From positions 3,029,875 to 3,093,874 of the forward strand of contig CBDCPK010000005.1 in the NCBI GenBank assembly GCA_965220195.1: a stretch of DNA of 64,000 bases. Direction: 5' to 3'. The position numbers were made by a program, and so were the translations under genes. The notes under the pieces are model-generated. The model worked only from the letters and a program-made list of their open reading frames with translations, had not been told where the DNA came from and did no database searches. The number at the start of each line of letters is the position of its first letter. Position 1 is the first letter of the stretch. Origin of the DNA: an uncultured Candidatus Binatia bacterium. Its GTDB lineage: Bacteria > Desulfobacterota > Binatia > Bin18. This document shows, piece by piece, positions 8,468-45,953 of this stretch.

Positions 8468-8502
8468 GGAGGGGATTTTCGGGGAAGAGAGGTTAGAGTA
8501 TT

Positions 8503-29223: not shown

Positions 29224-29311
29224 GGAGGGATGGCCGAGCGGTTGAAGGCGCCGGTCTTGAAAATCGGTAGAGTCCAAAAGGCTCTCGTGGGTTCGAATCC
29301 CACTCCCTCCG
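29224..29311 (+). tRNA. tRNA-Ser (anticodon UGA)
   Basis: Acceptor stem GGAGGGA/TCCCTCC. D-arm GCCGAGCGGTTGAAGGC. Anticodon loop CTTGAAA. Long variable arm. T-arm GTGGGTTCGAATCCCAC. Discriminator G. Confidence 0.85.
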
Positions 29312-29413
29312 CGTCCCCTTGATTCCCTTTGTTCCCGCCCGTTTGCCCCAGCGCCCAACGATTGGTCAGGGAAGGGAATGTGATAATGTTAATATCAAGA
29401 GAGAGGAGTAGGG

Positions 29414-29590
29414 ATGTCGCGTCGTAAGATAGCCATGCCTGAGGAATTGGAGGAATCAACTCGGAGACTCAAGAGGATGACGACCCCACGGAGCAAGATC
29501 GGTAAGATGAAACAGACGGCTGATAAGCTATTGGAACGGAACAAACAACTGATTGATCGATTGAAGAAAGACAAGGATAAGGAAGAATGA
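29414..29590 (+). CDS. Hypothetical small basic coiled-coil protein (58 aa)
   Basis: GAGAGGAG RBS. Its stop overlaps the next start (ATGATGG). Low G+C. Confidence 0.3.
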   Translation: MSRRKIAMPEELEESTRRLKRMTTPRSKIGKMKQTADKLLERNKQLIDRLKKDKDKEE

Positions 29591-29880
29591 TGGGCTTCGT
29601 GTTTGAAAAAGAAGGAAAGGCATACTGTATGGTGCTTAAAAGAAATGGGGATAACGGGTTCAAAGAGGGATACTTTACAGACAGAGAAAAAGACTCCAAA
29701 GAGAACGAATACTTGATAAATGGCAAAAGCTGTAAACGTGCTCATAACCCAGGGTCTCCCGAGTCTGGCCCTTGGAAGCCGCTTGGTCCCGATTGGAGCG
29801 GGGTTGTCAGCGCCTACGAAAAGGATGGGTGGGTAAAATCTCCGCTGACAAGTTTTGAGGGTCCCATACGACGGCTGTAG
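29587..29880 (+). CDS. Hypothetical protein (97 aa)
   Basis: Translationally coupled to the upstream small ORF. Low G+C. Confidence 0.3.
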   Translation: MMGFVFEKEGKAYCMVLKRNGDNGFKEGYFTDREKDSKENEYLINGKSCKRAHNPGSPESGPWKPLGPDWSGVVSAYEKDGWVKSPLTSFEGPIRRL

Positions 29881-29892
29881 GGAAAGGGGCAA

Positions 29893-30123
29893 GTGATGAG
29901 CAAGCTACGTCAGTTCTTCCGGCCGGCAGAGAGGTATGAGGACGGCCGGTTTAAGACCTATGATGATATGAGTGAGGAAGGGAAAGCAGCTACGAAGTTG
30001 CGGCTGAAGTTTATAGGCATCATGCTCTTGATTACCGTGCTCGGTCTTCTCCTTGCATGGGAGGGGTACAAGCACAACAGAGAAATGGAAGCACAGGGGA
30101 AAGAAGGCTTCTATTTGTGGTGA
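29893..30123 (+). CDS. Hypothetical small membrane protein (76 aa)
   Basis: One predicted TM helix (IGIMLLITVLGLLLAW). GGGGCAAG RBS-like. Confidence 0.3.
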   Translation: MMSKLRQFFRPAERYEDGRFKTYDDMSEEGKAATKLRLKFIGIMLLITVLGLLLAWEGYKHNREMEAQGKEGFYLW

Positions 30124-30235
30124 CAACGAGGCTCTGAGGTAGAGATGAAATTCCCTAGAGGGTGTTAGGCACTTCTGACAACCTATTGATTTTATGTAGG
30201 TTTTTTACAGAGCCACACAATGCCGCCCTCTATTT

Positions 30236-30372
30236 TGCTGTTCCCGAGGGGCCCGAAAACGCGGCAGTTTCGGCAGCATGCCGGGAACAGTAACTGTCCA
30301 GCGATTCCAAAGGGTTAGCCCTTGAAAAAAAAGCTGTTCCGCTGTTCCCGACCTCTAATGGGGAACAGAAAG
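30236..30372. promoter_or_regulatory. Array of CTGTTCC/GGGAACAG inverted and direct repeats upstream of hsdR (candidate operator region)
   Basis: CTGTTCCCG-N35-CGGGAACAG with a nested CCGAAA/TTTCGG hairpin. Second palindrome CTGTTCCC-N11-GGGAACAG. Tandem CTGTTCCGCTGTTCCC and GAACAGAAAGAACAG. Confidence 0.4.
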
Positions 30373-30462
30373 AACAGAAAATATGACCATACGCTGACAA
30401 TGGACGAGGCGGTACTATGCTGGCGCAAGAGGGTGAGATGTGATGAATGAAAGAATCCCGCC

Positions 30463-32871
30463 ATGCAGAAGACCCGTCTCAGCGAAAGCGATGTCCGCGC
30501 CAAGTATATTACGCCAGCCCTGCATCAGGCCGGCTGGGACGAGGCGCAGATTCGGCGCGAGGTCAGCTTCACCAAGGGCCGCATTATCGTGCGCGGCAAG
30601 CTGGTCAGCCGGGGTGAGGGCAAGCAGGCCGATTACGTCCTGCACTACAAGCCCAACCTCCCCATTGCGCTGATTGAAGCCAAGGACAACATGCACGCGG
30701 TTGGTGATGGCATGCAGCAGGCCCTGGGCTATGCCGAGACGCTGCATATCCCCTTTGTTTTTTCCTCCAACGGCGAGGGTTTTGTGTTCCACGACCGGAC
30801 CGGCCTGAGCCCTGAGCGGGAAACCACCCTCAGCCTGGACGCCTTTCCCGCGCCGGCCGAGCTGTGGGAGCGCTATCGTGCCTGGAAGGACCTGACACCA
30901 GAGGCCGAGTCCGTTGTTTCGCAGGACTATTTCAGCGACGGCGGCGGGAAGACCCCGCGCTACTATCAGGTCAACGCCATCAACGCCGCCATTGAGGCTA
31001 TTGCCAAGGGCCGCGAGCGCCTCCTGCTGGTCATGGCTACCGGAACGGGCAAGACCTATACCGCCTTTCAGATCATCTGGCGGTTGTGGAAGGCGGGCGG
31101 TAAAAAGCGCATTCTGTTTCTGGCCGACCGCAATGTGCTGATTGACCAGACGATGGTCAACGACTTCCGGCCTTTCGGTCCGGCCATGGCCAAGCTGTCG
31201 CCCAGGGCCGGGACCATCGAGCGCGCGGACGGTGCCTCCGAGGACCTGAGCGCCGCGATTGACCGCAGGCGGCGGATTGACACCTCGTATGAAATCTATC
31301 TCGGCCTGTACCAGGCCCTGACCGGGCCGGAGGACCGTCAGAAAGTCTTTCAACAGTTTTCGCCCGGCTTCTTCGACCTGATTGTGATTGACGAGTGCCA
31401 CCGCGGCAGCGCGGCCGAGGATTCGGCCTGGCGGGAAATCCTGGACTATTTCTCGTCCGCCACCCACATTGGTCTGACGGCCACGCCCAAGGAAACGGCC
31501 TATGTGTCCAACATCGAATACTTTGGCGAGCCGGTCTATACCTACTCGCTCAAACAGGGCATCCACGACGGATTTCTGGCCCCCTACAAAGTCATCAAGG
31601 TGCATATCGACCGCGACGTAGAGGGCTACCGACCCGAATCCGGCCAGTTGGACCGGGACGGGCACGAGGTCGAGGACCGCCTCTACAACACCAAGGATTT
31701 TGACCGCAATCTGGTATTGGACGAACGGACCAAGCTGGTGGCCCGCAAGATCACCCAATTCCTGAAGGAAAGCGGCGACCGCTTCCAGAAGACGATTGTC
31801 TTCTGCGTTGACCGGGAGCACGCGGCCCGGATGCGCCAGGCCCTCATCAACGAGAACGCCGCCCTGGTAGGCGAGAATCACCGCTATGTCATGCGGATCA
31901 CCGGCGGCGACACCGAGGGGCAGGCTCAACTGGACAACTTCATTGACCCGGAATCCCGATACCCCGTATTGGTCACCACTTCGCGTTTGCTCTCGACCGG
32001 GGTGGATATCCAGACCTGCCGGCTCATCGTGCTTGACCGGGAGGTGGGCTCCATGACCGAGTTCAAGCAGATTGTCGGTCGCGGCACCCGTGTGCACGAA
32101 GACACACGCAAGTTCTACTTTACGCTGATGGATTTTCGGGGCGCGACCGGTCATTTTGCCGACCCGGACTTTGACGGCGAGCCGGTGCAGATATACGAAC
32201 CCGGCGAGGACGATCCCATCACGCCGCCCGACGACGAAACAACGCCCCCGCAACCGGGCGAGGATGAGACGATTGTAGATGGTCTGCCACCCGATAGGCA
32301 GAAACCCCGCAAGATATATGTGGATAGTGTGAGCGCCGGCATCGTTGCCGAGCGGGTTGAGTATCTGGACCAATACGGCAAGCTGGTCACCGAGTCCTTA
32401 CGTGACTTTACCCGAAAGGCGCTGAAAAAGCGCTTTGCCAGCCTGGACGATTTTCTCCGGCGCTGGAAAGCGGCCGAACGCAAGCAGGCCATTCTTGAGG
32501 AATTGGCTGCCGAGGGGCTGGCGCTCGACACGATTGCCCAGGAACTCGGCAAGGACCTCGACCCTTTTGACCTGATTTGCCATGTAGCTTTTGACGCCAA
32601 GCCGCTGACCCGGCGCGAACGGGCTGAAAACGTCAAGAAGCGCGACGTGTTCGCCAAGTACGGAGACCGGGCCCGCACCGTGCTCGACGCATTACTCGCC
32701 AAGTATGCCGACGAGGGCGTGCTGAATCTGGACGATACCAACGTGCTGCGCATCCCACCCTTGAGCAACCTGGGCACCCCGCTGCAGCTTCTTAAGGCCT
32801 TTGGCGGCAAGGGAAGGTTCGTCCAGGCCGTTCACGATCTGCAAGCCGAGCTGTATAGGGAGAGCGCGTAA
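30463..32871 (+). CDS. hsdR: Type I restriction enzyme R subunit (HsdR)
   Basis: The N-terminal SESDTRAKYITPALHQAGW motif is classic for HsdR. Walker A GTGKT and DECH box (VIDECHRGS). Helicase C domain. Confidence 0.9.
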   Translation: MQKTRLSESDVRAKYITPALHQAGWDEAQIRREVSFTKGRIIVRGKLVSRGEGKQADYVLHYKPNLPIALIEAKDNMHAVGDGMQQALGYAETLHIPFVFSSNGEGFVFHDRTGLSPERETTLSLDAFPAPAELWERYRAWKDLTPEAESVVSQDYFSDGGGKTPRYYQVNAINAAIEAIAKGRERLLLVMATGTGKTYTAFQIIWRLWKAGGKKRILFLADRNVLIDQTMVNDFRPFGPAMAKLSPRAGTIERADGASEDLSAAIDRRRRIDTSYEIYLGLYQALTGPEDRQKVFQQFSPGFFDLIVIDECHRGSAAEDSAWREILDYFSSATHIGLTATPKETAYVSNIEYFGEPVYTYSLKQGIHDGFLAPYKVIKVHIDRDVEGYRPESGQLDRDGHEVEDRLYNTKDFDRNLVLDERTKLVARKITQFLKESGDRFQKTIVFCVDREHAARMRQALINENAALVGENHRYVMRITGGDTEGQAQLDNFIDPESRYPVLVTTSRLLSTGVDIQTCRLIVLDREVGSMTEFKQIVGRGTRVHEDTRKFYFTLMDFRGATGHFADPDFDGEPVQIYEPGEDDPITPPDDETTPPQPGEDETIVDGLPPDRQKPRKIYVDSVSAGIVAERVEYLDQYGKLVTESLRDFTRKALKKRFASLDDFLRRWKAAERKQAILEELAAEGLALDTIAQELGKDLDPFDLICHVAFDAKPLTRRERAENVKKRDVFAKYGDRARTVLDALLAKYADEGVLNLDDTNVLRIPPLSNLGTPLQLLKAFGGKGRFVQAVHDLQAELYRESA

Positions 32872-32874
32872 TTC

Positions 32875-34335
32875 ATGTCCGTTCGCACTCTGGTCAAATC
32901 CATTCAGGACATCATGCGCCAGGACACGGGCGTGGACGGTGACGCCCAGCGTATCAGTCAGTTGTGCTGGATGTTCTTTCTCAAGATCATTGACGACCAG
33001 GACCAGGAAATGGAGATGGAGAGGGAGGGGGAGGGCTACACGTCCCCTATACCCGAGCAGTTTCAATGGCGGACCTGGGCGGCCGACCCCGAGGGCATGA
33101 CCGGTGAGGAACTGTTGAACTTTATCAACGCCGACTTGTTCCCGTCGCTGAAGAACCTGGAAATTGACCAGGCAGGAGCCCGTAGCCGCGTTGTGCGCGA
33201 TGTTTTTGAGGATGCCTACAACTACATGAAGTCCGGCCAGTTGGTGCGTCAGGTGGTCAACAAGATCAACGATATTGACTTTAATGACCTGACCGAGCGT
33301 CAGCATTTCGGCGACATCTACGAGCAGATTCTCAACGACCTGCAATCCGCGGGCAATGCCGGCGAGTATTATACGCCCCGCGCCGTAACCGCCTTTATGG
33401 TTGATCGTATCGACCCCAAGCCGGACGAGACCGTATTCGACCCGGCCTGCGGGACCGGTGGCTTTTTGACCTGTGCACTGCGTCACATGCGTGAGCGTTA
33501 TGCCAAACGGCCCGAAGACGAACCGACCATACAGGCTGCCCTGCGTGCCGTTGAAAAGAAGCAGCTCCCCCACATGCTGTGCGTGACCAATATGCTGCTG
33601 CACGGCGTTGAAGACCCGAGCTTTGTGCGCCACGACAACACCCTGGCGCGGCCCTACATTAGCTGGGAGCAAAAGCACCGGGTGGACATTGTCCTGACCA
33701 ACCCGCCTTTTGGCGGCAGGGAGGAAGACGGTATTGAGGCCAACTTTCCGAAAGAGTTTCGGACCAAGGAGACCGCAGACCTGTTCCTGGCTCTTATTAT
33801 CCGCCTGCTGAAGCCGGGTGGGCGCGCCGCCGTGGTGCTGCCCGACGGCTCGCTGTTTGGCGAGGGCGTCAAAACGCGGCTCAAGGAGCACTTGATGGAG
33901 GAGTGCAACCTGCATACCATCGTGCGCCTGCCCAATTCCGTGTTCCGGCCGTATGCCTCTATCGGCACCAATCTGCTGTTCTTTGAGAAGGGCGCACCAA
34001 CCACTGACATCTGGTTCTACGAGCACCGCGTGCCCGCAGGTCAGAAAGCCTATTCCATGACCAGGCCGATCCGGCTGGACCATTTACAGCCCTGCATCGA
34101 CTGGTGGGGTGGGGCGGAGCGCACGGACCGCACGGAAACGGAGCGCGCCTGGAAGGTGACCGCCGAAGCCGTCAAGGCGCGCGGCTACAACCTGGACATC
34201 AAAAACCCGCATACCCAGGCAGACGACCTCGGCGACCCGCAAGAACTGCTGGCCAAGCTCAGCGCAACCGAGGCCGAGGTCACGGACTTGCGGGACCAGT
34301 TAAAGGCGATATTGGCCGAGGCGTTGCTGCGGTAA
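32875..34335 (+). CDS. hsdM: Type I restriction-modification N6-adenine DNA methyltransferase M subunit (HsdM)
   Basis: NPPFGG catalytic motif, SAM-binding FDPACGTGGFL, and the HsdM N-terminal domain. Starts 4 nt after the hsdR stop. Confidence 0.9.
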   Translation: MSVRTLVKSIQDIMRQDTGVDGDAQRISQLCWMFFLKIIDDQDQEMEMEREGEGYTSPIPEQFQWRTWAADPEGMTGEELLNFINADLFPSLKNLEIDQAGARSRVVRDVFEDAYNYMKSGQLVRQVVNKINDIDFNDLTERQHFGDIYEQILNDLQSAGNAGEYYTPRAVTAFMVDRIDPKPDETVFDPACGTGGFLTCALRHMRERYAKRPEDEPTIQAALRAVEKKQLPHMLCVTNMLLHGVEDPSFVRHDNTLARPYISWEQKHRVDIVLTNPPFGGREEDGIEANFPKEFRTKETADLFLALIIRLLKPGGRAAVVLPDGSLFGEGVKTRLKEHLMEECNLHTIVRLPNSVFRPYASIGTNLLFFEKGAPTTDIWFYEHRVPAGQKAYSMTRPIRLDHLQPCIDWWGGAERTDRTETERAWKVTAEAVKARGYNLDIKNPHTQADDLGDPQELLAKLSATEAEVTDLRDQLKAILAEALLR

Positions 34336-34395
34336 GGGCCGCTTGCAATCCACCGTTTCAGCCCCTCTCTCGCTCTCCTCTGTGGCCTTCATATC

Positions 34396-34456
34396 CCCTC
34401 CTTGGAGGGGTGGCCCGAAGGGCCGGGGTGGGTTCCTTTTCGCATCACACGTCCCG
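34396..34456. repeat. Third (inverted) copy of the 43-bp GGAACCCACCCC unit fused to the GTGGGTTCCTTTTCGCATCACACGTCC element
   Basis: CCCCTCCTTGGAGGGGTGGCCCGAAGGGCCGGGGTGGGTTCC is the reverse complement of 3819-3861. It is followed by a near copy of 3955-3985. Confidence 0.55.
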
Positions 34457-34593
34457 AGAGGAGAGAAGAGCACAGGCCTGTCCTTTACCACCGTATTGGA
34501 ACGCCTCCGGCTCATCCAACCTGCGGAACGAGTTTGATGCATACGGCTATTCCCCCTAAATTTGACTGATCCTAGTCATAAGGGGAATCACTC

Positions 34594-34890
34594 TTGAATA
34601 AATCCCGTCAAGCCAGGCAGACCGGCCCGGCACGGACTTCCGGCTGGAAGCTGGGAGAGGCCAAGGCAAAGTTCAGTGAACTCGTTCGCCTTGCCGCGTC
34701 CGGGCAGCCGCAACGGGTCACGGTTCACGGGAAGGACGCCGTGGTCATCGTCGCGGCAGACACATTCGAAGCCCTCCAGGCGCGGGAGCAATCGGGCAGC
34801 TTACACGAACTCCTGTCCCAATCTCCGCTGAGCCGTATCACGTTCGGTGGAGATAGTGTTCGGAGTCCGGTCCGTGAGTGTGCGTTGTGA
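34594..34890 (+). CDS. Phd/YefM-family antitoxin-like protein
   Basis: WKLGEAKAKFSELVR...VTVHGKDAVVIV matches the Phd/YefM N-terminal fold. TTG start after an AAGGGGAA RBS. Confidence 0.55.
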   Translation: MNKSRQARQTGPARTSGWKLGEAKAKFSELVRLAASGQPQRVTVHGKDAVVIVAADTFEALQAREQSGSLHELLSQSPLSRITFGGDSVRSPVRECAL

Positions 34891-34936
34891 ATAGCGCTTG
34901 CCTCTCTCGTCTTTCTATTTCACAATGGTCTCCATG

Positions 34937-35149
34937 AACACGGTCACTGTTCGCCTGGATGCAGAGCTTGCCCTTGAGTTGACAAAACTCGCGAAACGTA
35001 CGGGACGCCCCAAAAGCGAGTTGATTCGCCGTGCGTTACGCCGCCAACTGGCATTGGCTCGTTTTGAAGAACTGCGTCAGGGTGTCGCGCCGTTCGCAGA
35101 GGCCAGAGGGTGGCTTACGGATGAAGACGTTTTCCAGAACGTCTCATGA
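34937..35149 (+). CDS. Ribbon-helix-helix (CopG-like) antitoxin
   Basis: MNTVTVRLDAELALELTKLAKRTGRPKSELIRRAL is a typical RHH. Its stop overlaps the vapC start. Confidence 0.6.
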   Translation, partial: NTVTVRLDAELALELTKLAKRTGRPKSELIRRALRRQLALARFEELRQGVAPFAEARGWLTDEDVFQNVS

Positions 35150-35541
35150 GGGTATTCTTGGACACCAACGTGCTGGTTGCCGCCTACGCGACGCGCGGAC
35201 TTTGTGAGGATGTCTTTCGAGTCATATTAGCAGAACACGAACTCGTCGTGAGCGAGACCGTGCTCGCCGAATTTGAGCGCGTCCTGGTGCAGAAGCTCCG
35301 CTTGCCTCTTCCGCAAGTAAAAACACTGTCATCTTTCTTACGAAGACAGGCCGACATCGTTGACCCTGTCGCTCCCTCCGTGTGGCCGAAACGTGACCCG
35401 GACGACCGATGGGTCGTTGCGGCAGCGATAGAGGGAGGCGTTGATTTTCTTGTCACTGGTGATCGTGACCTGCTTGAAGTCGCTGCTGAAGTGCCCGTTT
35501 CCATCGTCTCGCCGCGAACGTTCTGGGAGCAACTTCGTTAG
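35146..35541 (+). CDS. vapC: VapC-family PIN-domain toxin
   Basis: MRVFLDTNVLVAA N-terminus, with conserved Asp/Glu positions later in the sequence. Confidence 0.8.
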   Translation: MRVFLDTNVLVAAYATRGLCEDVFRVILAEHELVVSETVLAEFERVLVQKLRLPLPQVKTLSSFLRRQADIVDPVAPSVWPKRDPDDRWVVAAAIEGGVDFLVTGDRDLLEVAAEVPVSIVSPRTFWEQLR

Positions 35542-35678
35542 TCCGCAGGGTGGCTGAGGAAAATGTCAGGTGAAGCTTCGCTCACTTGGCCTACGAGGCT
35601 GTTGGCCGGTTACACTCCTAAAGCATTGCCAAAAAGTAGCCTATACGCTACTGGAGGGTATGCCTGGGAGATGAGCAT

Positions 35679-35999
35679 ATGGCAAGGCGCACCATTCCGT
35701 ACGAAGACCTCCTCTATCAGGACCTCCAAGACCCCGAAGAGGCTGTGGCGTATCTGAACGCTGCCCTGGACGACGAATATGCACAGGGGGCAGAGGTCTT
35801 TCTCTTAGCCCTCCGTGATGTTGCCAAGGCTCGTGGTATGAAACAACTCGCTCAGGACACGCAACTCAGCCGGGAGAGCTTGTACCGAACATTGTCCCGT
35901 AAGGGGAACCCTCGCTTTTCCACGCTTGAGGCCGTGTTGAAGAGTCTTGGGCTGAAACTGAGTGTGACGGTGAAGCCCCCGGAAACAAAGGCTGCCTGA
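35679..35999 (+). CDS. HigA-family addiction-module antidote protein (orphan)
   Basis: DPEEAVAYLNAALDD...LLALRDVAKARGM...SRESLYRTLS matches the TIGR02684-like antidote family. No killer partner is detected upstream. Confidence 0.6.
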   Translation: MARRTIPYEDLLYQDLQDPEEAVAYLNAALDDEYAQGAEVFLLALRDVAKARGMKQLAQDTQLSRESLYRTLSRKGNPRFSTLEAVLKSLGLKLSVTVKPPETKAA

Positions 36000-36005
36000 C
36001 CTCCG

Positions 36006-36065
36006 CGTTACCTCTTCAATGAATGCCGAACACCTGCTCACCCACTTCGACCGCATAGCCGACGC
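36006..36065 (+). repeat. Direct repeat 1: duplicated 5' end of hsdS (about 50 bp plus GCCGACGC)
   Basis: CGTTACCTCTTCAATGAATGCCGAACACCTGCTCACCCACTTCGACCGC matches 36804-36852 with two mismatches. Confidence 0.7.
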
Positions 36066-36109
36066 GGCGCAGGTGACGCTTCGCTCGCCTAGGCTACGAG
36101 GCTGCCGAT

Positions 36110-36604
36110 ATGACTAAACCACGCGTGTATGTTGAGACCACGATTCCCAGCTTTTACCACGAAGAGCGCTCTGCTCCCGACATCGTAGCGCGCCGGGAAT
36201 GGACGCGGCGATGGTGGGACAGTGCGCCCGAGCACTACGAGCTTGTCACCAGCCCGGCCGTTCTGGACGAGCTGGCCCGCGGGATCCCGGAACGCAGTGA
36301 GAGACGCCTGTCGCTGGTGCGCAATCTCCCGCTCCTGCCCGTCGAATTGGCTATCACCGAGATCGTCCAAGGGTATATCAGGCACAAGCTGATGCCGGCG
36401 GATCCTGGTGGTGACGCCTTGCACTTGGCGCTCGCCTCCTACCACAAATGCGACTTTCTGGTAACGTGGAATTGTCGACATCTGGCAAACGCGAACAAGT
36501 TTGGCCATATCCGCCGTGTGAATACGATGCTCGGCCTTTTTATTCCGGCGCTCGTGACCCCGTTGGAACTCTTTGGAGGGAGCGATGAAACAGAATCAGA
36601 GTGA
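36110..36604 (+). CDS. PIN-like domain protein (putative VapC-like toxin)
   Basis: C-terminal DALHLALASYHKCDFLVTWNCRHL resembles the PIN C-terminal motif. The N-terminus (VYVETT) has Glu in the first acidic position. Confidence 0.5.
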   Translation: MTKPRVYVETTIPSFYHEERSAPDIVARREWTRRWWDSAPEHYELVTSPAVLDELARGIPERSERRLSLVRNLPLLPVELAITEIVQGYIRHKLMPADPGGDALHLALASYHKCDFLVTWNCRHLANANKFGHIRRVNTMLGLFIPALVTPLELFGGSDETESE

Positions 36605-36782
36605 CCCGGTGATTGATGAGATTCGAGAAGTGCGGCACCGCATCTCGGCGTGCTTTGGCCATGACCCCACACGGTTGGTAGCCTTCTACATGGAAATGCA
36701 GAAGCAGTACCAGGACCGGCTGATTGAGACCGCAAAGAGTTCTCAGGATAAGGATAACCAGCAATCTGACACGGCGCTTTAA
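36585..36782 (+). CDS. Small partner protein of the PIN-like gene (putative antitoxin), 65 aa
   Basis: Overlaps the PIN-like gene's 3' end by 20 nt. Charged helical protein. Confidence 0.4.
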   Translation: MKQNQSDPVIDEIREVRHRISACFGHDPTRLVAFYMEMQKQYQDRLIETAKSSQDKDNQQSDTAL

Positions 36783-36803
36783 CGCGCGAACAGCTCGCCG
36801 CAT

Positions 36804-36863
36804 CGTTACCCCTTCAATGAACGCCGAACACCTGCTCACCCACTTCGACCGCCTCGCCGACGC
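36804..36863 (+). repeat. Direct repeat 2: authentic 5' end of hsdS
   Basis: Partner of 36006-36065. Contains the hsdS start codon at 36817. Confidence 0.7.
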
Positions 36864-38532
36864 ACCGGACGCTATTCCGCGCTTGCGCCGGTTTATTCTT
36901 GATCTGGCGGTACGCGGCAAGCTGGTGGAGCAGGACCCGGAGGATGAGCCGGCGGGGGAGCTGTTGAAGCGGATTACGCCTGAGAAGCAACGACTTGTGG
37001 CTGAGGGGAAATTCAAATCGCTAGATACTACCGAATTCGATAATGGAGCAGAGAATGTTTCATTCTCAATCCCTGCTAATTGGGTGTGGTGTCGCCTGGA
37101 TGATATAGCAGCAATTGCCAGAGGCGGGTCGCCACGACCCATCAAAGCTTATCTCACGGATGACAGGGACGGCATCAACTGGATAAAGATCGGCGATTCA
37201 GAGAGAGGCAGTATCTACATAAACGAGACGAAAGAAAAAATTCGGCCTGACGGCCTAAAGAAATCAAGAATGGTCTTCCCCAATGATCTGATTCTATCGA
37301 ACTCTATGAGTTTTGGTTATCCATATATCTTGAATATTCAAGGATGCATACACGACGGATGGTTAGTCATACGAACTCCAGATGGTTTGTTGGATAAACT
37401 GTTTCTCTACAATTTGCTCCTTTCAAGCCATTCTAGGAACACGTTTTCAAATGCTGCGGCAGGGGCAGTAGTACAAAATCTAAATGCGGATAAGGTGCGG
37501 AGGCTTTCCATCCCCCTCCCACCCCTTGCCGAACAACACCGCATCGTCGCCAAAGTTGATGAACTGATGGCCCTGTGTGACCGGCTGGAAACAGCGCGGG
37601 AGGAGCGGGAAGCGACACGCAACCGACTGGCAACGGCAAGCCTCGCCCGCCTCAACGCACCCGACCCCGACCCGGCGGTCTTTCAGAACCACACGGCCTT
37701 TGCCCTCAACAACCTCACTCCGCTTACTACCCGTCCAGACCAGATCAAGGCGCTACGTCAGACCATCCTTAACTTGGCGGCACGGGGGAAGCTGGTGGAG
37801 CAGGACCCGGAGGATGAACCGGCGGGGGAACTGTTGAGAAAAGTAGCTGAGACCCGGAAGGCTCTAGTCGCTGAACGTAAAATGAAGCGTTCAAAGGACC
37901 TGCCGCCAGTAGAGGATCAAGAGATTAAGTTTGGTATACCAGCAGGATGGGCCGTTACTCGTATGGGCGTCGCGTATGACGTTCGTGACGGAACTCATGA
38001 CTCACCGAGGTACGTTGATGAGGGGTATCCACTTATCACTAGCAAAAACCTATCTTCCGGGTACTTATCCTTTGACGAGACGAAATTGATTAGCGAAGAG
38101 GACTACATTAAAATCTCGCAGCGATCTGCAGTCGTAAAAGGCGATATACTTTTGGCGATGATTGGGAGCATCGGAAATCCAGTGATCGTCGATACTGATC
38201 AACCATTCGCAATCAAAAATGTCGCCCTGCTAAAATATTTTGATCCAGACTATTCTAATCCCAGATTTTTACGGTTTTTCCTTCTAAATGCTGCTAACGA
38301 GATGAAGGCTCTTGCTGCCGGTGGTTTGCAACCATTCGTCTCACTTAGTTTCCTGCGAAACTATCCTCTTGCTCTTCCGCCGCTTGCCGAACAACACCGC
38401 ATTGTTGCCAAGGTTGATGAACTGATGGCGGTGTGTGACCGGTTGGAGGCGAGCCTTGCTGGGGGTGAGGAGACGCGGGGGCGGTTGGTGGAAGCGGTGT
38501 TACATGAGGCGTTGGCGCCAGAGTTGCACTGA
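36817..38532 (+). CDS. hsdS: Type I restriction-modification specificity subunit (HsdS)
   Basis: Two target-recognition domains. The duplicated conserved regions LAxRGKLVEQDPEDEPAGELL and LPPLAEQHRIVAKVDELMAxCDRLE each occur twice. Confidence 0.85.
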   Translation: MNAEHLLTHFDRLADAPDAIPRLRRFILDLAVRGKLVEQDPEDEPAGELLKRITPEKQRLVAEGKFKSLDTTEFDNGAENVSFSIPANWVWCRLDDIAAIARGGSPRPIKAYLTDDRDGINWIKIGDSERGSIYINETKEKIRPDGLKKSRMVFPNDLILSNSMSFGYPYILNIQGCIHDGWLVIRTPDGLLDKLFLYNLLLSSHSRNTFSNAAAGAVVQNLNADKVRRLSIPLPPLAEQHRIVAKVDELMALCDRLETAREEREATRNRLATASLARLNAPDPDPAVFQNHTAFALNNLTPLTTRPDQIKALRQTILNLAARGKLVEQDPEDEPAGELLRKVAETRKALVAERKMKRSKDLPPVEDQEIKFGIPAGWAVTRMGVAYDVRDGTHDSPRYVDEGYPLITSKNLSSGYLSFDETKLISEEDYIKISQRSAVVKGDILLAMIGSIGNPVIVDTDQPFAIKNVALLKYFDPDYSNPRFLRFFLLNAANEMKALAAGGLQPFVSLSFLRNYPLALPPLAEQHRIVAKVDELMAVCDRLEASLAGGEETRGRLVEAVLHEALAPELH

Positions 38533-38601
38533 CGATATTCTTAACTTAGTTACATGCGAATTATCCGTCTACGAACGATAGCGGATTGTAGAAGGTGATG
38601 G

Positions 38602-39894
38602 ATGGAACTAGAGAAGATAAAAAGCGTGGATGAGTACCTACGCTCTTTACAATCTTTGCGCAATGCACATGCCTACAGGTATAGGGGACAATCTAACAGT
38701 GCATGGCCGGTATGCTCCTCATGGGCTCGCGCATTTAAAGGCCAAACACATTGGGACTGCCTTTCCTACCATTCAGACCTGATACGCGATTTTCCTTCCT
38801 TTGATTCTCTACCTGGATACGTAAGAGACCTTTCCAGAGAGAATCCGAGTCTTCTTACAGATTGGGATAAAGTAGCAATTATACAGCATTATGGAGGTGA
38901 GACTGGAAAAAAGACTATACTGACCGACTTTACTATAAGGCCGCTTATTGCCCTATGGTTCGCTTGTCAAGAAAAGGAGCACCGGAAAGAAGACGGAAAA
39001 GTCTTTGCTGTTTCAATTGATATTTTAGACGAGGTAGGGCTCCCGCATATCGATGATTATATTCGGGGCAACCATTCAGATTTGTACACTCTCGATAGAT
39101 CGTACCTATTTCCTACAAGTTTTCAGTACAATCCCAGAGGCAATACCAGAAGTCCTCACAAAAGCTATGTTTCTCGGATCGATAAGCAAGCATCATCCTT
39201 TGTCCTAGGGATTGAGAGGGTTGAGGAGGCTAAATGCAAATCAGTCATAATTGAGGCCAGCAGCAAGAAGCGAATACTCAATGAGTTGCGCTACTTTTTC
39301 TCCATATCAGAGAAAGCGCTCATGGATGATTGGTATGCTCTTGGCGAGGCTGTAGCGAACGGCAAGGAGGTGTCTACCGACGGTTTTACCGATGCTGAGT
39401 ACTATAACTTAGCGAAGGATATTAGTTTGTTACATAGACAACCGAGGGCTGGGCGTCCTTATTTTGAGGAAGCCCTCCAATACTGGCATTCTCAGAGAGA
39501 TCGTAGAGAGGCAATGGTTAAAGCCAGTTACTCTGATGACGCCGACCGAGAAAGAGTGCGTTGTTACATGAATCAAGCAGGAGCGCACTATTACATGAAT
39601 ACGGCTTGGACGATCTACTGTCTTGAGGATGCAGATGAGGGGGAGACACGGCGTGCTTGTGGTTATGCCCACAAGGGTTTTGATATGGCTAGCTATGATC
39701 CACAGCGTCCCGGATTCGCTGTAGTCTATGCCCTTTGTCTACTGAGATTGAATAAGGAAAAAGCCGCATACGATTTATGCAGGAGAGAACTCGATTTCTA
39801 CGAGCACTCTGCCCCCGCCTTCTGTACGGGCAAGAATTCTCCTTCTATTGATAAATTGAGAAGGATAGTGAACATTTATGAGGCTCACCATTAG
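38602..39894 (+). CDS. FRG-domain protein
   Basis: The N-terminal YRYRGQSNSAWPV motif is the FRG signature. Low G+C. GAAGGTGA RBS. Confidence 0.65.
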   Translation: MELEKIKSVDEYLRSLQSLRNAHAYRYRGQSNSAWPVCSSWARAFKGQTHWDCLSYHSDLIRDFPSFDSLPGYVRDLSRENPSLLTDWDKVAIIQHYGGETGKKTILTDFTIRPLIALWFACQEKEHRKEDGKVFAVSIDILDEVGLPHIDDYIRGNHSDLYTLDRSYLFPTSFQYNPRGNTRSPHKSYVSRIDKQASSFVLGIERVEEAKCKSVIIEASSKKRILNELRYFFSISEKALMDDWYALGEAVANGKEVSTDGFTDAEYYNLAKDISLLHRQPRAGRPYFEEALQYWHSQRDRREAMVKASYSDDADRERVRCYMNQAGAHYYMNTAWTIYCLEDADEGETRRACGYAHKGFDMASYDPQRPGFAVVYALCLLRLNKEKAAYDLCRRELDFYEHSAPAFCTGKNSPSIDKLRRIVNIYEAHH

Positions 39895-40080
39895 CAATCT
39901 CTCATTGATTAACTAGACGCTCACACCTCTGGCAACCCAACCCCACGAACTCCACAAAATTTCCCTAGAAGCAGCCTGACTTCATCTGGACGATTTTCAC
40001 TTGTCCGATTGCGAGCGGATGGGATGCAAGCCAGGGACTCCTTCACCCTCACCCTCTATAGGGGAGAGAGAATAGGACAG

Positions 40081-40125
40081 GGACAGGGCTGGGAATGTCG
40101 GATTACGCCGCCGGTTCATCCGACC
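40081..40125 (+). repeat. 45-bp direct repeat, copy a (GGGAATGTCGGATTACGCC...)
   Basis: About 85 percent identical to 41703-41745 in the same orientation. Confidence 0.55.
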
Positions 40126-40183
40126 TACGGGACGCTCTTGAAGCCGTTGACAACATGTCCCATATCCGGGACACTATTCTTCC

Positions 40184-40516
40184 GTGAGGCCCGCCTTCTT
40201 TCATCCCAAAGCGAGAGACATCTTGCGGACTTTTCCAGAAACAGTACGAAAAGAGTTGGGCAAGGCTATTATAGATTTGCAGAAAGGGGCTTCTGTAGGC
40301 CCGCCCCTCTCTCGGCCTATGCCGTCCGTGGCTCTAGGGACAAATGAACTCAGAATCCGTGATCGTACGGGAATTTATCGAACCTTTTACTATACAAAGG
40401 CAGCGCGTGGGGTCTTGATCTTTCACGCGTTTATTAAAAAGACGCAGAAAACGCCGTTACGAGAGATTGAGACCGGAAGGAAACGGCTTAAGGAGATGCT
40501 CCATGAACTCAGCTAA
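40184..40516 (+). CDS. higB: HigB-like toxin (RelE/ParE superfamily, Gp49-like)
   Basis: LRIRDRTGIYRTFYYTKAARGVLIFHAFIKKTQK matches the Gp49/HigB family. GTG start. Confidence 0.65.
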   Translation: MRPAFFHPKARDILRTFPETVRKELGKAIIDLQKGASVGPPLSRPMPSVALGTNELRIRDRTGIYRTFYYTKAARGVLIFHAFIKKTQKTPLREIETGRKRLKEMLHELS

Positions 40517-40802
40517 ACCTGTCGTTGCAGAAGACGCGACTGCGCTGGCGGAAATTTTAGGACTGACTCCCATTGATGGAGCGGAAATCCAGTTGCGGAG
40601 CGACTTGAATGACAAAATTATTGAGGTTGTGGAGAAAAGCGGACTCACCCACGCTCAGGTTGCCAAACTGGCTCGGACTTCCCGGTCCCGTATGACGGCA
40701 ATTCTCAACCGTAATACCCAAGATGTCTCTACTGACCTGATGCTCCGCATCATGGCCGGCTTAGGCTATCGGGCCAAACTGACCTTCTCACGGGTGGCGT
40801 AG
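40503..40802 (+). CDS. higA: HigA-like XRE-family HTH antitoxin
   Basis: HTH motif LTHAQVAKLARTSRSRMTAIL. ATGA overlap with the higB stop. Confidence 0.7.
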   Translation: MNSAKPVVAEDATALAEILGLTPIDGAEIQLRSDLNDKIIEVVEKSGLTHAQVAKLARTSRSRMTAILNRNTQDVSTDLMLRIMAGLGYRAKLTFSRVA

Positions 40803-40986: not shown

Positions 40987-41020
40987 ACGCTAACTTTTGG
41001 TGGTTAGCGTTTTTCTTTTT
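40987..41020 (+). terminator. Rho-independent terminator (8-bp stem ACGCTAAC/GTTAGCGT plus T-run)
   Basis: Perfect 8-bp stem with an 8-nt loop, followed by TTTTTCTTTTT. The same bases encode the Lys-rich C-terminal tail of the convergent minus-strand PIN gene. Confidence 0.5.
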
Positions 41021-41292
41021 ACGGATTTTCCCGGTCGGTTTTTTCTTGTCTTTTTGTCATCCAGGTCGGTCAGGAGCCTGTCGATTTCGTCGTCTGTCCG
41101 TCCGTGGAGCCGGACGAGACGCGGACGGCGCAACACGGACGAATACTCGTTGAGCAGGTCGTCCGACATGAGGTAAAGGAGGTCGCCATCAAGCATGGCG
41201 TCCAGTATCCGTGCTGGGGGACTGCTCGAATCCGCGCCGATCAGCCCCGAAACGATGACATTGGTGTCGATAATACAAGCCTTCGGCGTCAT
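40990..41292 (-). CDS. PIN-domain toxin (VapC-like)
   Basis: ACIIDTNVIVSGL PIN N-terminal signature. Basic C-terminal tail. Confidence 0.7.
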   Translation of the reverse strand: MTPKACIIDTNVIVSGLIGADSSSPPARILDAMLDGDLLYLMSDDLLNEYSSVLRRPRLVRLHGRTDDEIDRLLTDLDDKKTRKNRPGKSVKRKTLTTKS

Positions 41293-41334
41293 CGGCTCTC
41301 TTCCGCACCTCTCGAACTTGGCCGCTGACGCCGC

Positions 41335-41580
41335 TCAGCGCGACTGCTCGTCACGAAAACGTCTTGTTTCCTCGACTGCCAGGGCCATCGCGTCGGGAGC
41401 GTTCAATCCAAACTGCGCTCGCGCCTTGGCGACAATCTCCTTGGCGGTATCGTAGGGTCGGATCCCTCTCAGTTCCAGGCTTTCCTCGATGATTGAAGCC
41501 ATGGAACGATTCTGCCGGGCCGCCGCTTCCTTCAGTGCCCGGTGTGTCCGGTCGGCTAAACTGATGGTCAGGCGGGGCAT
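41335..41580 (-). CDS. Ribbon-helix-helix antitoxin partnering the PIN toxin
   Basis: MPRLTISLADRTHRALKEAAARQNRSMASIIEESL is an RHH fold. Located upstream of the toxin on the same strand. Confidence 0.6.
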   Translation of the reverse strand: MPRLTISLADRTHRALKEAAARQNRSMASIIEESLELRGIRPYDTAKEIVAKARAQFGLNAPDAMALAVEETRRFRDEQSR

Positions 41581-41861: not shown

Positions 41862-44510
41862 TCAACGTCGTTTCTCGGTAAACTCTTGTCGGATTTCTGT
41901 CACGGTATCCCTGATCTCCGCAGGTAGGGGTTCAAGTTCTTCGCCCAATTCTTCCCGTACAGCGTGCCAGAGCGGCTCCATTGGCTCGGCCAGTCCGGCT
42001 TCCTCCATTATCTGCTTGACGCGCGGGCCGTGGCCGGCGGCGACGGCCCGGATCAACGACTCTGTTAAACTAGGCCATTCCTGTTCCTGGAAGTCGCCGC
42101 CGATGCGTAGCGCGTGTTCGATCTGGTCCAGCGCTTCTGTCCATTGGCCACGATGAGCCAAGACATCGGAGAGCGTTTGAAAAGTGCTCGGATTCTTCGG
42201 CCCCAGTTCTATCGCGCGGCGGGCGCATTCCTCGGCCTCCAGCAGACGCGCGGCGTCATTCTGGTCAAGAATCGCTGTTGCCAGAATACGCCATGCTTCA
42301 TCATACGTCGGTGCGATATCCGTCGCCCTTCTACAACCAGCTTCCGCTTCATCGTGCCTTCCAAGTACGTTCGATAACCGACCGCCAGCTATCAGCCATT
42401 TTGCGACTGGACGACGTAGTTCCATCGGGTCGTTTGAGCGTACATAATCCGAGGAACGTTGAAAAATGGCGGCTACGTCTTCGTACCGTTTCAGGCCACC
42501 AATGCTAATGGCTTTTCTGCCTAGCGCTCTAATGGCTACATCACGCAGTTCCTTTGGGTCCTCCGTGCGGACATACTCGGTGGTCCGCTCCCAAGCAGCG
42601 GTGGCTTTTTCGTTGCGTCCCAGCTTGGCAAGAAGGTCACCCTTGGCGTTGAACGCCTCGGCGGCCAATTGGCGTAAGTCCACAGAGTCATCTGGATGGA
42701 CGTATTCCGTGACACGCTGCCAAGCAGCGATAGCCTCTTCATGACGACCCAATTTGGTGAGAGCCATGCTGTTGGTCCCGTGAGCCCAGGCGGCCATGTT
42801 GCGCAATTCTACCGAGTCATCCGGACGGATATATTCCGATGCCTGCTCCCATGTGGCGATGGCGTCTTCGTGCCGCTCCAGTTGGAAAAAAGCAAGGCCC
42901 TTGCTTGCCAATGCCGCGACGACTACGCCGCGTAATTCTGGCGAACCAGACGGACTCGTCTGCTCCAAGACACGATCGGAGGCGGCTATGGCGTCTTTGA
43001 AACGGCCCTCTTCAATCAGCGTGACGCTGCGTTCCACCCACTCGACAAGACGCTCTAGGCTTGCTTTATCTTGGCCTGCAAACGCCTCCTGAATTTTCTC
43101 AACGACCGGCGCGTTCGGACTGATAAAGTTCTTAGCAAGATCGAGCGCCTCGCGTTGCCAGTCCTCCCGCCCTTTGAAGTCCGTATCTCCAGCTACGTAG
43201 CCAGCCAGGATGGTGAGCCAATCGGACGCTTCTCCGCCGTGTGAGCCGTTCACTCGTAACGCCGACAGTACCGCCGGATACATCATCCGCATTCCGGATG
43301 GACCGAAAAGATCGTGAAGGAAGGCGACGAGTCGCTCTAAGCGGTGCCGGCCTGCACGCGAGAAGCGTAGCAGATAGTAGATGTTGTAAAATCGATCGCT
43401 GACTTCATATCGTATCCGCTTTGCTCCTCGTAGCCGGATCTCTTTTGCATAGCCCTTTTCCATAAGTTGCTTGAGTTGGGCGCTAGCGTGCGAGGAGTTT
43501 AGATTCGCGGCGTCGGCAACCTCCCTCGCCAGCATCGGCTTCCATCCCTCCGCGAGACAGTGAAATACTTTGCGGGACTGACCCGGTAATTCCTCGATCC
43601 GGGCTTTGAAATAAGGCGTCTGTTCGTCGATGAGCCGTTCCAGATCCTCAAAGGCAGAGCCGAGCGGCGATTCGATCAGGAGCCGACAGGCAAGAACCAG
43701 CAACCGCGGGTTCCCGCCCGTCAGCCGACGCAGGGTCTCCAGCCGGCCACGTTCATGACGCAGGGTTTCCGCAATTCCTGGCTTGCCGTCGCAAGCCGCG
43801 AGTGTTTCAAGTATGCGGAGAGTCTCTTCCTGCCCCAGACCTTCGAGCAGGAAGAGCCGGAAGAACTCGTAAAACGGCTCGCCGTGTCCTCGGATGGCTT
43901 CGAAGACGGCGTTAGCAGAACCGACCAACAGGATATTCGGACATTCAATCAGACTGGCCCGCAACGCGTGAACTTCGCGCTCGTCGCGCAACTGCTCGAA
44001 GACGGCGTCGAGGTTCTCGACGAACAGGATCAACCGTTTGCCGCTTGCCCGGCAAAAGTCCATAAGCGCTGCGAGCGCGTACGCGGCGAGCCGTTCCGTG
44101 TCTCTTTCGTCCTGGGCTAGAGCGTTGGCTCTGTCCTCCCACTGCGAGTCCTCGGTGGCGCGGGTCAGATGGCGCAGAGCGACAAGCCAGAAGTCCGCCA
44201 AGTTACCGACATCGTAGCTTTCCTCGTAGAACGGGACGGGTTGCCAGTTCGCGGCAAGGTCGGGCGACTCTCCAACTGCGTGCAGAAACCGTAGCCCAAG
44301 GGTAGTTTTTCCCATTCCGCGCGGGCCGATGAGCAGCATATGCTGACACGGTCGTCCGCGCTGCTGCTCGCGAATCAGGCGGAGCATCTCTGCGAGAGTT
44401 TTTTTACGAGCGACGAACGACGCCTTCAACTCGTCAGGAGTAAGCTGGGCCGGGTTGTACAGACGCTGGCGGATCATGACGCGACACTCCCGTGGTATTT
44501 CCGCCACCAT
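41862..44510 (-). CDS. STAND-like P-loop NTPase with winged-helix and C-terminal TPR array (882 aa)
   Basis: Walker A GPRGMGKTT. Walker B hhhhD(VEN)LD. Winged-helix region. At least 8 TPR-like repeats with a recurring A..W/Y..A pattern. An alternative start at 44477 gives a 4-bp overlap with the upstream gene. Confidence 0.7.
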   Translation of the reverse strand: MVAEIPRECRVMIRQRLYNPAQLTPDELKASFVARKKTLAEMLRLIREQQRGRPCQHMLLIGPRGMGKTTLGLRFLHAVGESPDLAANWQPVPFYEESYDVGNLADFWLVALRHLTRATEDSQWEDRANALAQDERDTERLAAYALAALMDFCRASGKRLILFVENLDAVFEQLRDEREVHALRASLIECPNILLVGSANAVFEAIRGHGEPFYEFFRLFLLEGLGQEETLRILETLAACDGKPGIAETLRHERGRLETLRRLTGGNPRLLVLACRLLIESPLGSAFEDLERLIDEQTPYFKARIEELPGQSRKVFHCLAEGWKPMLAREVADAANLNSSHASAQLKQLMEKGYAKEIRLRGAKRIRYEVSDRFYNIYYLLRFSRAGRHRLERLVAFLHDLFGPSGMRMMYPAVLSALRVNGSHGGEASDWLTILAGYVAGDTDFKGREDWQREALDLAKNFISPNAPVVEKIQEAFAGQDKASLERLVEWVERSVTLIEEGRFKDAIAASDRVLEQTSPSGSPELRGVVVAALASKGLAFFQLERHEDAIATWEQASEYIRPDDSVELRNMAAWAHGTNSMALTKLGRHEEAIAAWQRVTEYVHPDDSVDLRQLAAEAFNAKGDLLAKLGRNEKATAAWERTTEYVRTEDPKELRDVAIRALGRKAISIGGLKRYEDVAAIFQRSSDYVRSNDPMELRRPVAKWLIAGGRLSNVLGRHDEAEAGCRRATDIAPTYDEAWRILATAILDQNDAARLLEAEECARRAIELGPKNPSTFQTLSDVLAHRGQWTEALDQIEHALRIGGDFQEQEWPSLTESLIRAVAAGHGPRVKQIMEEAGLAEPMEPLWHAVREELGEELEPLPAEIRDTVTEIRQEFTEKRR

Positions 44511-45670: not shown

Positions 45671-45953
45671 ATATGAATCTCCTGTGGAGATTTTAGTGTG
45701 GCACCACGATAAATGACAAAGATATTTTTGGCAATAGATTTTTTGGCAAAAATTCTGATGTTATCTTTTGGTAAGGAGAAAATACTGCTAGGACAAAGAC
45801 TTAAAATCGCTCGTGAAGCGTAAGCCACCAAACGGCAGGAATGCGTTTGATCGTTCCGTTCAAGGGGAGGCGAGGCTACGAGGAGAGCCGATCAGATTTC
45901 TTTGGGGGGCAAAAACGTATCCACGAAACCACGAGGGGAAGTCACAGAGACGT

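Follow-up and report, generated by a model that had tools for sequence, protein, structure and literature searches.

How does the specificity gene of a type I restriction-modification (RM) operon come to lie far from its methyltransferase gene, and what fills the space between them? The question is raised by a stretch of 64,000 nt, hereafter the window, from an uncultured Candidatus Binatia bacterium (GenBank assembly GCA_965220195.1, contig CBDCPK010000005.1, positions 3,029,875 to 3,093,874 of the forward strand), in which hsdR and hsdM are contiguous and hsdS starts 2,481 nt after the hsdM stop codon. A preliminary description of this DNA had listed toxin-antitoxin (TA) genes in the gap. 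Indeed, open reading frames (ORFs) and family matches place all the genes that it named where it put them, on the hsd strand; profile matches identify the intervening ORFs as TA components, and hsdS is an intact 571-aa ORF rather than a pseudogene. The gap holds more than that list, namely a stub of hsdS, a direct repeat (D5), the relic of a killer gene and a REP-like element. Our favoured explanation, to which we give a probability of roughly 0.6, is that an array of TA cassettes accumulated at the hsdM-hsdS junction of a type IB RM operon and has since partly decayed.

Four antitoxin-type genes (Phd, RHH, HigA and the 65-aa partner of a PIN-like protein) and two toxins, both of PIN type, occupy the gap, all on the plus strand. 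The preliminary description had thus been right about an antidote gene that has no killer, but its count of three antitoxin-like genes was too low. Two of the modules (RHH-PIN, and the PIN-like gene with its 65-aa partner) appear complete today, Phd and HigA are left as orphan antitoxins, and hsdS is intact. A less decayed counterpart is locus L003, from a Binatia metagenome-assembled genome (MAG) whose HsdM is 92% identical. There the order is hsdM, Phd-VapC, RelB-RelE, an hsdS stub, killer-HigA and hsdS, and Phd-VapC, RelBE and killer-HigA are intact; relative to this locus the window has lost VapC and had the killer gene deleted in frame, in agreement with the decay and module shuffling first suspected. 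Synonymous divergence (dS) between the window and L003 is 0.27 for hsdR, 0.44 for hsdM, 0.18 for Phd and 0.30 for HigA; since these values are similar, the Phd and HigA cassettes were inherited together with the hsd genes.

The fate of the killer gene can be followed closely. A search for a remnant upstream of HigA had been proposed, and a four-codon relic is found there together with the retained upstream region: window positions 35611-35670 are 93% identical to L003 13016-13075, which span the killer's upstream region and first codons, and homology restarts at L003 13388, leaving about 312 nt of killer gene missing. The L003 gene itself has 110 codons and matches TIGR02683 at 8.4e-34. The alignment shows an in-frame deletion of the killer with retention of an operator-like region, and the deletion preserves the spacing of stop, 4 nt and ATG ahead of HigA. 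What is left is a TIGR02684 antidote without a full TIGR02683 killer immediately upstream. This orphan HigA is 95% identical to that of L003 with a dN/dS of 0.07, and is still under purifying selection.

At the other end of the gap a toxin has been exchanged. The Phd protein is 85-89% identical to those of L003, L004 and L005 and 72% identical to that of L017 (dN/dS 0.31-0.36), its upstream region is conserved in the same four loci, and in all four a 141-aa VapC comes next. From the Phd stop codon on, the window carries an RHH-PIN pair in place of VapC, and the comparison shows replacement of one by the other. No cognate toxin adjoins Phd in the window and, the short killer relic apart, a search of the window for remnants of this VapC, RelBE and the killer found none. 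The PIN start overlaps the RHH stop as ATGA. Because an RHH gene lies directly ahead of the PIN homologue in 77 of 80 metagenome loci, we regard RHH-PIN as a genuine two-gene module, with the VapBC-type layout of an RHH/CopG gene overlapping a downstream PIN gene in a pairing conserved elsewhere. The nearest pairs (84-89% aa identity) lie immediately upstream of hsdR in the same RM family, at L009 6721-7372 and L016 6778-7382 (pair DNA 83-84% identical; PIN 84-85% identical over its full length). A metagenome scan with the window PIN (35146-35541) returned relatives of at most 60% identity, none adjoining hsd genes.

The HigA cassette and the PIN-like pair stand between the same flanks. One unit consists of D5, a cassette, and CGTTACC followed by hsdS nt 1-48, and it occurs as a tandem pair. 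The first copy encloses the HigA cassette, which lacks its toxin; the second encloses the PIN-like pair and continues into full-length hsdS. The two D5 copies agree at 30 of 35 nt and are the only two in the window, where none would be expected by chance. Repeat spacings are 503 nt for D5 and 798 nt for the hsdS 5' repeat (D1); they differ by 295 nt, exactly as the two middles do (404 versus 699 nt). Two like flanks around different middles fit a tandemly duplicated unit, and different cassettes within the same flanks are as expected if two alleles of the locus had recombined unequally or illegitimately. A stub ORF of 32 codons (36019-36117) uses the native start of hsdS and terminates 3 nt past the PIN-like ATG. 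D5b replaces the native upstream motif of the PIN-like cassette, as taken from L001, L002 and L163-L168, and supplies GAGG about 9 nt before the ATG. Stubs of hsdS at cassette borders are also present in L003 (12980-13013), L004 (11452-11589), L025, L169 and L170, the last two having a stub-D5b-PIN junction of identical layout; none was found in the other insert-bearing loci. Since the stubs occur in one clade, insertion at the hsdS 5' end is best regarded as a feature of this lineage, not as a general rule.

Several readings of these repeats were discarded. D5 is not part of the PIN-like cassette, other copies of which are preceded by another conserved motif (GGTGGTATCTT); the idea that D5 is a mobile or REP element that recurs was rejected on the available data, with no copies in metagenome contigs or surveyed loci; and as a RelE 3' end or spacer it shows merely weak similarity to L003. 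A 19-nt match between 35550-35568 and 36997-37015, considered as an hsdS relic, was put down to chance, about 15 such matches being expected by estimate in a 5-kb all-against-all comparison.

Three relatives found by searching with the 65-aa partner, L169, L170 and L171, carry the decay further. The hsdR-hsdM DNA of L169 and L170 is 89-91% identical to the window, and both share with it the order HigA, stub, D5b, PIN-like gene, partner, hsdS; as these independent assemblies show the same junctions, an assembly artefact or chimera is ruled out. In L169 the PIN-like gene, Phd and HigA are all frameshifted and hsdS is rearranged; in L170 the PIN-like gene is internally deleted (window 36150-36538 missing), and hsdM is frameshifted with an insertion sequence (IS) element beside it; in L171 the PIN-like gene has lost its 5' end. 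Both L169 and L170 have lost most of Phd-RHH-PIN by deletion between two AGGCC microhomologies. All three loci are more decayed than the window, and the 65-aa ORF is intact in every one of them. Across the loci examined overall, about 13 modules consist of an antitoxin alone, and every intact toxin has an antitoxin with it. Loss of the toxin first is the expected path of decay for TA loci, and its frequency among relatives suggests that any addiction effect would be short-lived, which argues against a durable stabilising role. Coordinates of the features are collected in Table 1.

Table 1. Features of the hsd operon and of the hsdM-hsdS gap, in window coordinates.
Feature	Position	Strand	Match or remark
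hsdR, type IB restriction subunit, 802 aa	30463..32871	+	ResIII 2.5e-44, EcoEI_R_C 3e-33, HSDR_N
hsdM, methyltransferase subunit, 486 aa	32875..34335	+	N6_Mtase 3.5e-73, HsdM_N, PDB 3ufb 1.6e-119
hsdM-Phd spacer	34336..34593	+	REP-like element plus the Phd cassette's own upstream region
REP-like palindromic element	34392-34436	inverted	two tight hairpins, GGAACCCACCCCGGCCCTTCGGGCCACCCCTCC..GGAGGGGAT; in hsdM-Phd spacer
Palindrome upstream of Phd	34563-34578		TGACT-N6-AGTCA
Shine-Dalgarno sequence of Phd	34580-34585		AAGGGG
Phd/YefM-family antitoxin gene, orphan	34594..34890	+	PF02604 5.9e-11, TIGR01552 6.5e-12
RHH (CopG-type) antitoxin	34934..35149	+	RHH_1 PF01402 2.4e-11; alternative ATG 34925
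PIN (VapC-like) toxin	35146..35541	+	TIGR00305 9.2e-15, PIN_3 1.9e-14
D5a, first copy of 35-nt direct repeat	35567..35601	+	left flank of HigA cassette
Upstream region of killer-HigA operon, retained	35611..35674	+	perfect palindrome AGTAGC-N6-GCTACT 35635-35652
TIGR02683 killer relic, 4 codons	35660-35674	+	ATG CCT GGG AGA TGA
HigA-type antidote gene, orphan	35679..35999	+	TIGR02684 9.3e-24, above cut-off
hsdS 5' stub	36006..36117	+	36006-36066 duplicates 36804-36864, 56/61 nt; hsdS part 36019-36066 (48 nt)
D5b, second copy of 35-nt direct repeat	36070..36104	+	left flank of PIN-like cassette
PIN-like toxin candidate, 164 aa	36110..36604	+	PF01850 27.4 bits, cut-off 23.6; toxin-first order
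Partner, 65 aa, predicted antitoxin	36585..36782	+	overlaps PIN-like gene
hsdS, specificity subunit, 571 aa	ATG 36817, stop 38532	+	Methylase_S, two stretches

We assign the system to type IB (EcoAI/EcoEI-like) because of its EcoEI_R_C domain, its gene order hsdR-hsdM-hsdS and its protein sizes. HsdS has two target-recognition domains and a conserved region repeated internally, and its N-terminal, central and C-terminal conserved regions are normally spaced when aligned with 78 relatives; the two-domain HsdS is intact, yet its gene is uncoupled from hsdM. We dropped the start that mechanical ORF calling gave to hsdS, TTG 36724, in favour of ATG 36817, the start common to all relatives. The EcoKI genes hsdM and hsdS share 1 nt, and translation of the two is coupled (Roberts et al. 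2012, PMC3510504). Comparison of junctions shows a corresponding ancestral state here, with hsdS overlapping the hsdM stop (ATGA) and translationally coupled to it: the ancestral hsdM terminus is CGA TGA overlapping the hsdS start, whereas that of the window is CGG TAA, without an overlapping hsdM stop and hsdS start. The window shares with EcoKI-type coupling and the type IB systems EcoAI and EcoEI the gene order, EcoEI_R_C and, in its relatives, the overlap, and differs from them in having lost that overlap and in the 2.48 kb between hsdM and hsdS. With the overlap gone, hsdS must depend on read-through or internal promoters, much as the preliminary description had supposed in naming read-through or a promoter of its own.

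That description had also called the separation of hsdS unusual, a view that a comparative survey does not support. We located hsdS in each of 80 loci, from many phyla, with HsdM 78-92% identical (HsdR is 66-91% identical across most or all of its length). In 47 of the 80 the hsdS ATG either shares bases with the hsdM stop (CG ATG A) or directly adjoins it, and a spacer of 17-74 nt separates the two genes in five; junction inserts of 376-2,323 nt occur in 21 loci, or 22 counting L009 (~3.4 kb; 3,401 nt maximum), and the remaining six junctions were not assigned to the overlap, spacer or insert class. Since 21-22 of 80 close relatives carry inserts, the hsdM-hsdS junction is a recurrent insertion hotspot in this RM family. 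The inserts are mostly TA or abortive-infection (Abi) genes: Phd-VapC (141 aa) in L003, L004, L005 and L017; RelB-RelE in L003 and L017, and frameshifted in L041; TIGR02683 killer with HigA in L003; VapB (PSK_trans_fac)-VapC in L007, L026 and L040; a DUF1016/YhcG nuclease in L038, L044, L053 and L065; Abi_2 in L066; and HepT in L072. The nearest relatives of the PIN-like protein led to four more type IB loci with PIN-like pairs between hsdM and hsdS, L165-L168. In three of these the partner stop overlaps the hsdS start as CCATGA (L165 5245-5248, L166 6676-6679, L167 788-791), which restores the ATGA otherwise provided by hsdM; coupling there seems to have been rebuilt. A separate oddity is L025 8229-11700, where hsdM and an hsdS 5' fragment are followed by a second hsdM and hsdS, a tandem duplication that is either real or an assembly artefact.

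The module next to hsdS combines a common protein with an undescribed one. Homologues of the 164-aa PIN-like protein number more than 7,400, the best 120 of which are all 77-95% identical; sources include Acidobacteria, Gemmatimonadota, Thermoanaerobaculia, Longimicrobiaceae and a marine TARA contig, and some call them VapC family toxins. Its invariant acidic residues are E9, E54, D98, D102 and D115. An exact look-up returned no record of this protein, and none of a 65-aa protein 100% identical to its partner. The 65-aa partner has no Pfam or NCBIfam match and belongs to no described family; it is modelled as a two-helix hairpin (pLDDT 85). In L001, L002 and L163-L168 the partner follows and overlaps the PIN-like gene, so that the two-gene unit is conserved. 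The cassette has very tight borders, from about 8 nt before the ATG to about 20 nt past the stop, and its dS is 0.18 relative to a marine contig with unrelated flanks. In L169, L170, L171, L017, L016 and L042 the PIN-like gene carries a frameshift, is deleted or is truncated, yet the partner is intact; it stands alone in L016 and L042, and in L017 it follows an N-terminally truncated PIN-like gene. Because it stays intact while the PIN-like gene is repeatedly destroyed, the 65-aa protein is probably the antitoxin of a toxin-first module, and a common PIN-like toxin with an unannotated 65-aa partner makes a candidate TA family worth testing.

How, then, might such a locus have been built, and how would hsdS be expressed from it? 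Comparison shows that, in a lineage to which the Binatia-labelled MAGs are nearest, TA cassettes were repeatedly placed before hsdS by recombination at its 5' end, either within the first 15-115 nt or a little upstream of them, each event leaving a short hsdS 5' stub as a scar. After this build-up toxins were lost and antitoxins retained, the killer being cut in frame and Phd's VapC swapped for RHH-PIN. The junction may tolerate inserts because HsdS serves both methylation and restriction, so that a polar drop in HsdS would lower both. Expression of hsdS may come from hsdRM read-through, from the retained and presumably antitoxin-autoregulated promoters of Phd and HigA, or from both, and translation would reach it at the end of a chain of close or overlapping ORFs (mini-ORF, HigA, stub ORF, PIN-like gene, partner, hsdS). 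No terminator-like site in the gap rises above chance. The intact modules could act as addiction or abortive-infection modules travelling with a 9.7-kb RM block, and the orphan antitoxins could persist as repressors or anti-addiction factors.

Several observations weigh against this explanation. The stubs are confined to one clade and at least six loci, which a few chance rearrangements could account for. D5 has no match in the metagenome collection, in 80 HsdM loci, in 80 metagenome PIN loci or in other PIN-like cassettes, and its origin is unexplained. A sigma-70 scan of the gap found no promoter, with the limit that host promoter types may differ from the consensus, and nothing resembling a Shine-Dalgarno sequence precedes the hsdS ATG, in contrast to the canonical junction. 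Support for a PIN fold in the 164-aa protein is no more than moderate: its Pfam score is just above the cut-off, it has no NCBIfam match, and its AlphaFold2 (AF2) model (pLDDT 72) finds as best PDB entry a PIN-like HARP RNase P, at a weak TM of 0.43 and E of 1.8e-3. Gene order and retention are the only grounds on which the 65-aa protein would be an antitoxin, and its gene might instead be kept because hsdS translation depends on it, as the ATGA overlap in L165-L167 would allow.

The operon may itself move. A block of ~9.7 kb (30414-40094), comprising hsdRMS, the TA array and an FRG-domain gene, is absent at the homologous site of L169, where the window flanks 30232-30413 and 40095-40239 are adjacent (L169 14204-14518); being missing between joined flanks, it behaves as a movable unit. 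The related RM locus of L169 lies about 4 kb from this empty site. A 13-mer, CGAGGCTGTTGGC, at window positions 35594-35606 begins inside D5a, runs past its 3' end, and is identical to L169 14368-14380, the exact point where the flanks of the block meet. It has just two exact copies in 1.93 Mb of fetched DNA; the match, noticed after the fact, may be chance or a recombination hot-spot motif.

That coincidence invites the idea of site-specific cassette capture, with D5 and GTTAC-type border sequences as attachment sites of some recombinase on an integron-like platform, for which the shared flanks of two different cassettes, the tight borders of the PIN-like cassette and its low dS to a contig with unrelated flanks would also speak. 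Among the ORFs scanned between 24.6 and 51.2 kb, however, no recombinase or integrase family match was found; D5 is absent from all the collections named above, and the borders neither share a structured repeat nor fit the integron GTTRRRY core. Given the missing recombinase and the post hoc nature of the CGAGGCTGTTGGC match, we rate a site-specific mechanism very unlikely. A partnership with restriction, which we consider decidedly unlikely, would make the PIN toxins second-line abortive-infection effectors or RM guardians, triggered once phage anti-restriction proteins or shut-off of the host put the type I enzyme out of action or use up labile antitoxins, an arrangement that would be like PrrC in the EcoprrI locus. 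The PIN-like pair does recur at the same junction in the same RM family (the window, L017, L165-L167 and L168, with remnants in L016 and L042), recognised Abi-type genes (Abi_2, HepT, DUF1016) sit there in other relatives, and PrrC and TgvAB are experimentally shown defences inside type I loci (PMC12707154, PMC12409362). Yet the same cassettes also occur outside hsd contexts (L001 and L002; 80 metagenome loci for RHH-PIN), no domain links the PIN toxins to Hsd proteins, and toxins are the parts most often destroyed in relatives, which is unexpected if they brought a lasting defence benefit.

Control of hsdS offers another way of accounting for the retained antitoxins. Under regulatory co-option, Phd and HigA, both DNA-binding autorepressors, would be kept as controller-like regulators of hsdS and PIN-like module transcription, setting the level and timing of HsdS after the RM block enters a new host. 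The upstream palindromes of both genes and the Shine-Dalgarno sequence of Phd are kept, the killer was removed exactly in frame with the spacing ahead of HigA preserved, dN/dS of HigA is low, ORFs are close or overlapping from the HigA upstream region through hsdS, and there is a precedent in the Phd-Doc homologues TvrAT, which regulate a recombinase gene in a pneumococcal type I locus and give no sign of addiction (PMC6265443). But the low dN/dS may predate the loss of the toxin, both Phd and HigA are frameshifted in L169, and most insert-bearing relatives are without Phd and HigA, so that hsdS does not generally depend on them; we consider co-option unlikely. Elements of accumulation and control can be joined in one doubtful but broader reading, in which the start of hsdS, its first ~50-115 nt together with a short flank upstream, would serve as a docking site. 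Homology-assisted recombination, needing no dedicated integrase, would swap and stack TA cassettes there and build a 'growth-ring' array, where the cassette closest to hsdS is the latest and stubs remain as scars; toxins would be purged, and the antitoxin-repressors left behind, with their promoters, would take over the control of hsdS. If this were true, type IB RM blocks would regularly carry TA modules about and also be their graveyards, and the 65-aa protein would be the first member of a new antitoxin family whose partner is a very widely transferred PIN-like toxin. We continue to prefer accumulation followed by partial decay.

Chromosomal orphan antitoxins are reportedly able to act as anti-addiction modules, a concept associated with Saavedra De Bast et al. 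in 2008. The antitoxins of the window resemble that concept in being kept without toxins; no related toxin-bearing plasmid or phage was identified for the host, and such a role is merely possible.

Type I operons with TA or Abi genes inside them are already known, and the window is a detailed example rather than a new kind of system. Matelska et al. (2017, PMC5499597) described PIN-type TA modules whose transcription is coupled to that of type I RM subunits, Abi/HEPN genes are embedded in RM operons (Anantharaman et al. 2013, PMC3710099), and on Synechocystis pSYSG TA loci are interleaved with type I genes (PMC4963859). As in these cases, the window has PIN toxins, with or without antitoxins, in an operon-like string with hsdM and hsdS, in arrangements that are not conserved in close relatives and thus point to recent rearrangement; it differs in that four modules are stacked at one junction and that the order of events, toxin deletions and stubs can be reconstructed, where the papers are less detailed. 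The pneumococcal tvr locus (SpnIV) has Phd-Doc-like tvrAT and the recombinase gene tvrR between hsdM and hsdR (Kwun et al. 2018, PMC6265443), is flanked by hsdS fragments, and excises and reintegrates through repeats. The window likewise has a Phd-family TA gene in a type I locus, near partial hsdS and direct repeats; the tvr TA genes are regulatory, and unlike tvr the window has neither a recombinase nor spare target-recognition domains, its hsdS fragment being a 48-nt 5' stub. Because the stub holds no recognition domain and no recombinase was found, the locus is not a phase-variable hsdS shufflon of the ivr or tvr type. A second toxic or defensive function within a type I operon is also encoded by the E. 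coli prr locus, EcoprrI hsdMSR with the embedded anticodon nuclease gene prrC (PMC12707154), and by the V. cholerae TgvAB genes embedded in a type I cluster (PMC12409362). However, PrrC (ABC-ATPase plus HEPN) and TgvAB (GmrSD-like) are not related to the proteins here and have been linked to phage defence by experiment, whereas the modules of the window belong to ordinary type II TA families, and no ORF in the gap has a PrrC/RloC-type ABC-ATPase-HEPN domain.

The locus is an unusually readable record of TA modules entering, stacking and decaying within a defence operon, in which a toxin cleanly deleted in frame, the exchange of one toxin for another and a scar at each insertion can all be recognised. 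With about a quarter of relatives in one widely transferred type IB family carrying junction inserts, split hsd operons should not be annotated as broken, and the hsdM-hsdS junction may be useful for mining new Abi or TA genes.

Further features of the gap and its neighbourhood deserve mention. The hsdM-Phd spacer is not unusually stable as an RNA fold (z = -1.6). Its REP-like element has copies elsewhere in the window (3817-3861 and 8433-8476), at the equivalent place in L005 (11782-11821) and, in L169, just upstream of hsdR (2420-2497). Left of the RM block, 30232-30371 contains nested inverted repeats, CTGTTCCCG...CGGGAACAG (twice), that are 94% conserved in L169. A tRNA-Ser(TGA) gene (29224-29312) lies 1.1 kb upstream of hsdR and is all that an Rfam search of 29-42 kb detected; no repeat of its 3' end that could mark an island border was found in the window. 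It is followed at 29395-30400 by a stretch of lower GC with three small ORFs that have no family match.

Downstream, and still inside the block, a 430-aa FRG-domain protein (38602-39894; PF08867 2.9e-13) is encoded directly after hsdS and is absent from L169. Just outside it stands a Gp49-like (PF05973) toxin with an HTH_37 antitoxin (40184-40802), with the palindrome TGTCCC-N6-GGGACA upstream (40156-40173); in L169 (14396-15053) most of the toxin, window 40240-40489, is deleted and the antitoxin kept, another toxin-only loss. A truncated PIN_3 gene of 100 aa follows on the minus strand (40990-41292; profile positions 3-78 of 115). Finally, a 109-nt direct repeat (94%; 41327-41435 and 45949-46057) brackets two STAND-like ATPase genes, both on the minus strand, at 41862-44510 (AAA_16 plus TPR) and 44474-45670 (AAA_16/nSTAND1 plus a MarR-like HTH), and this bracketed pair may be another inserted defence-type module.

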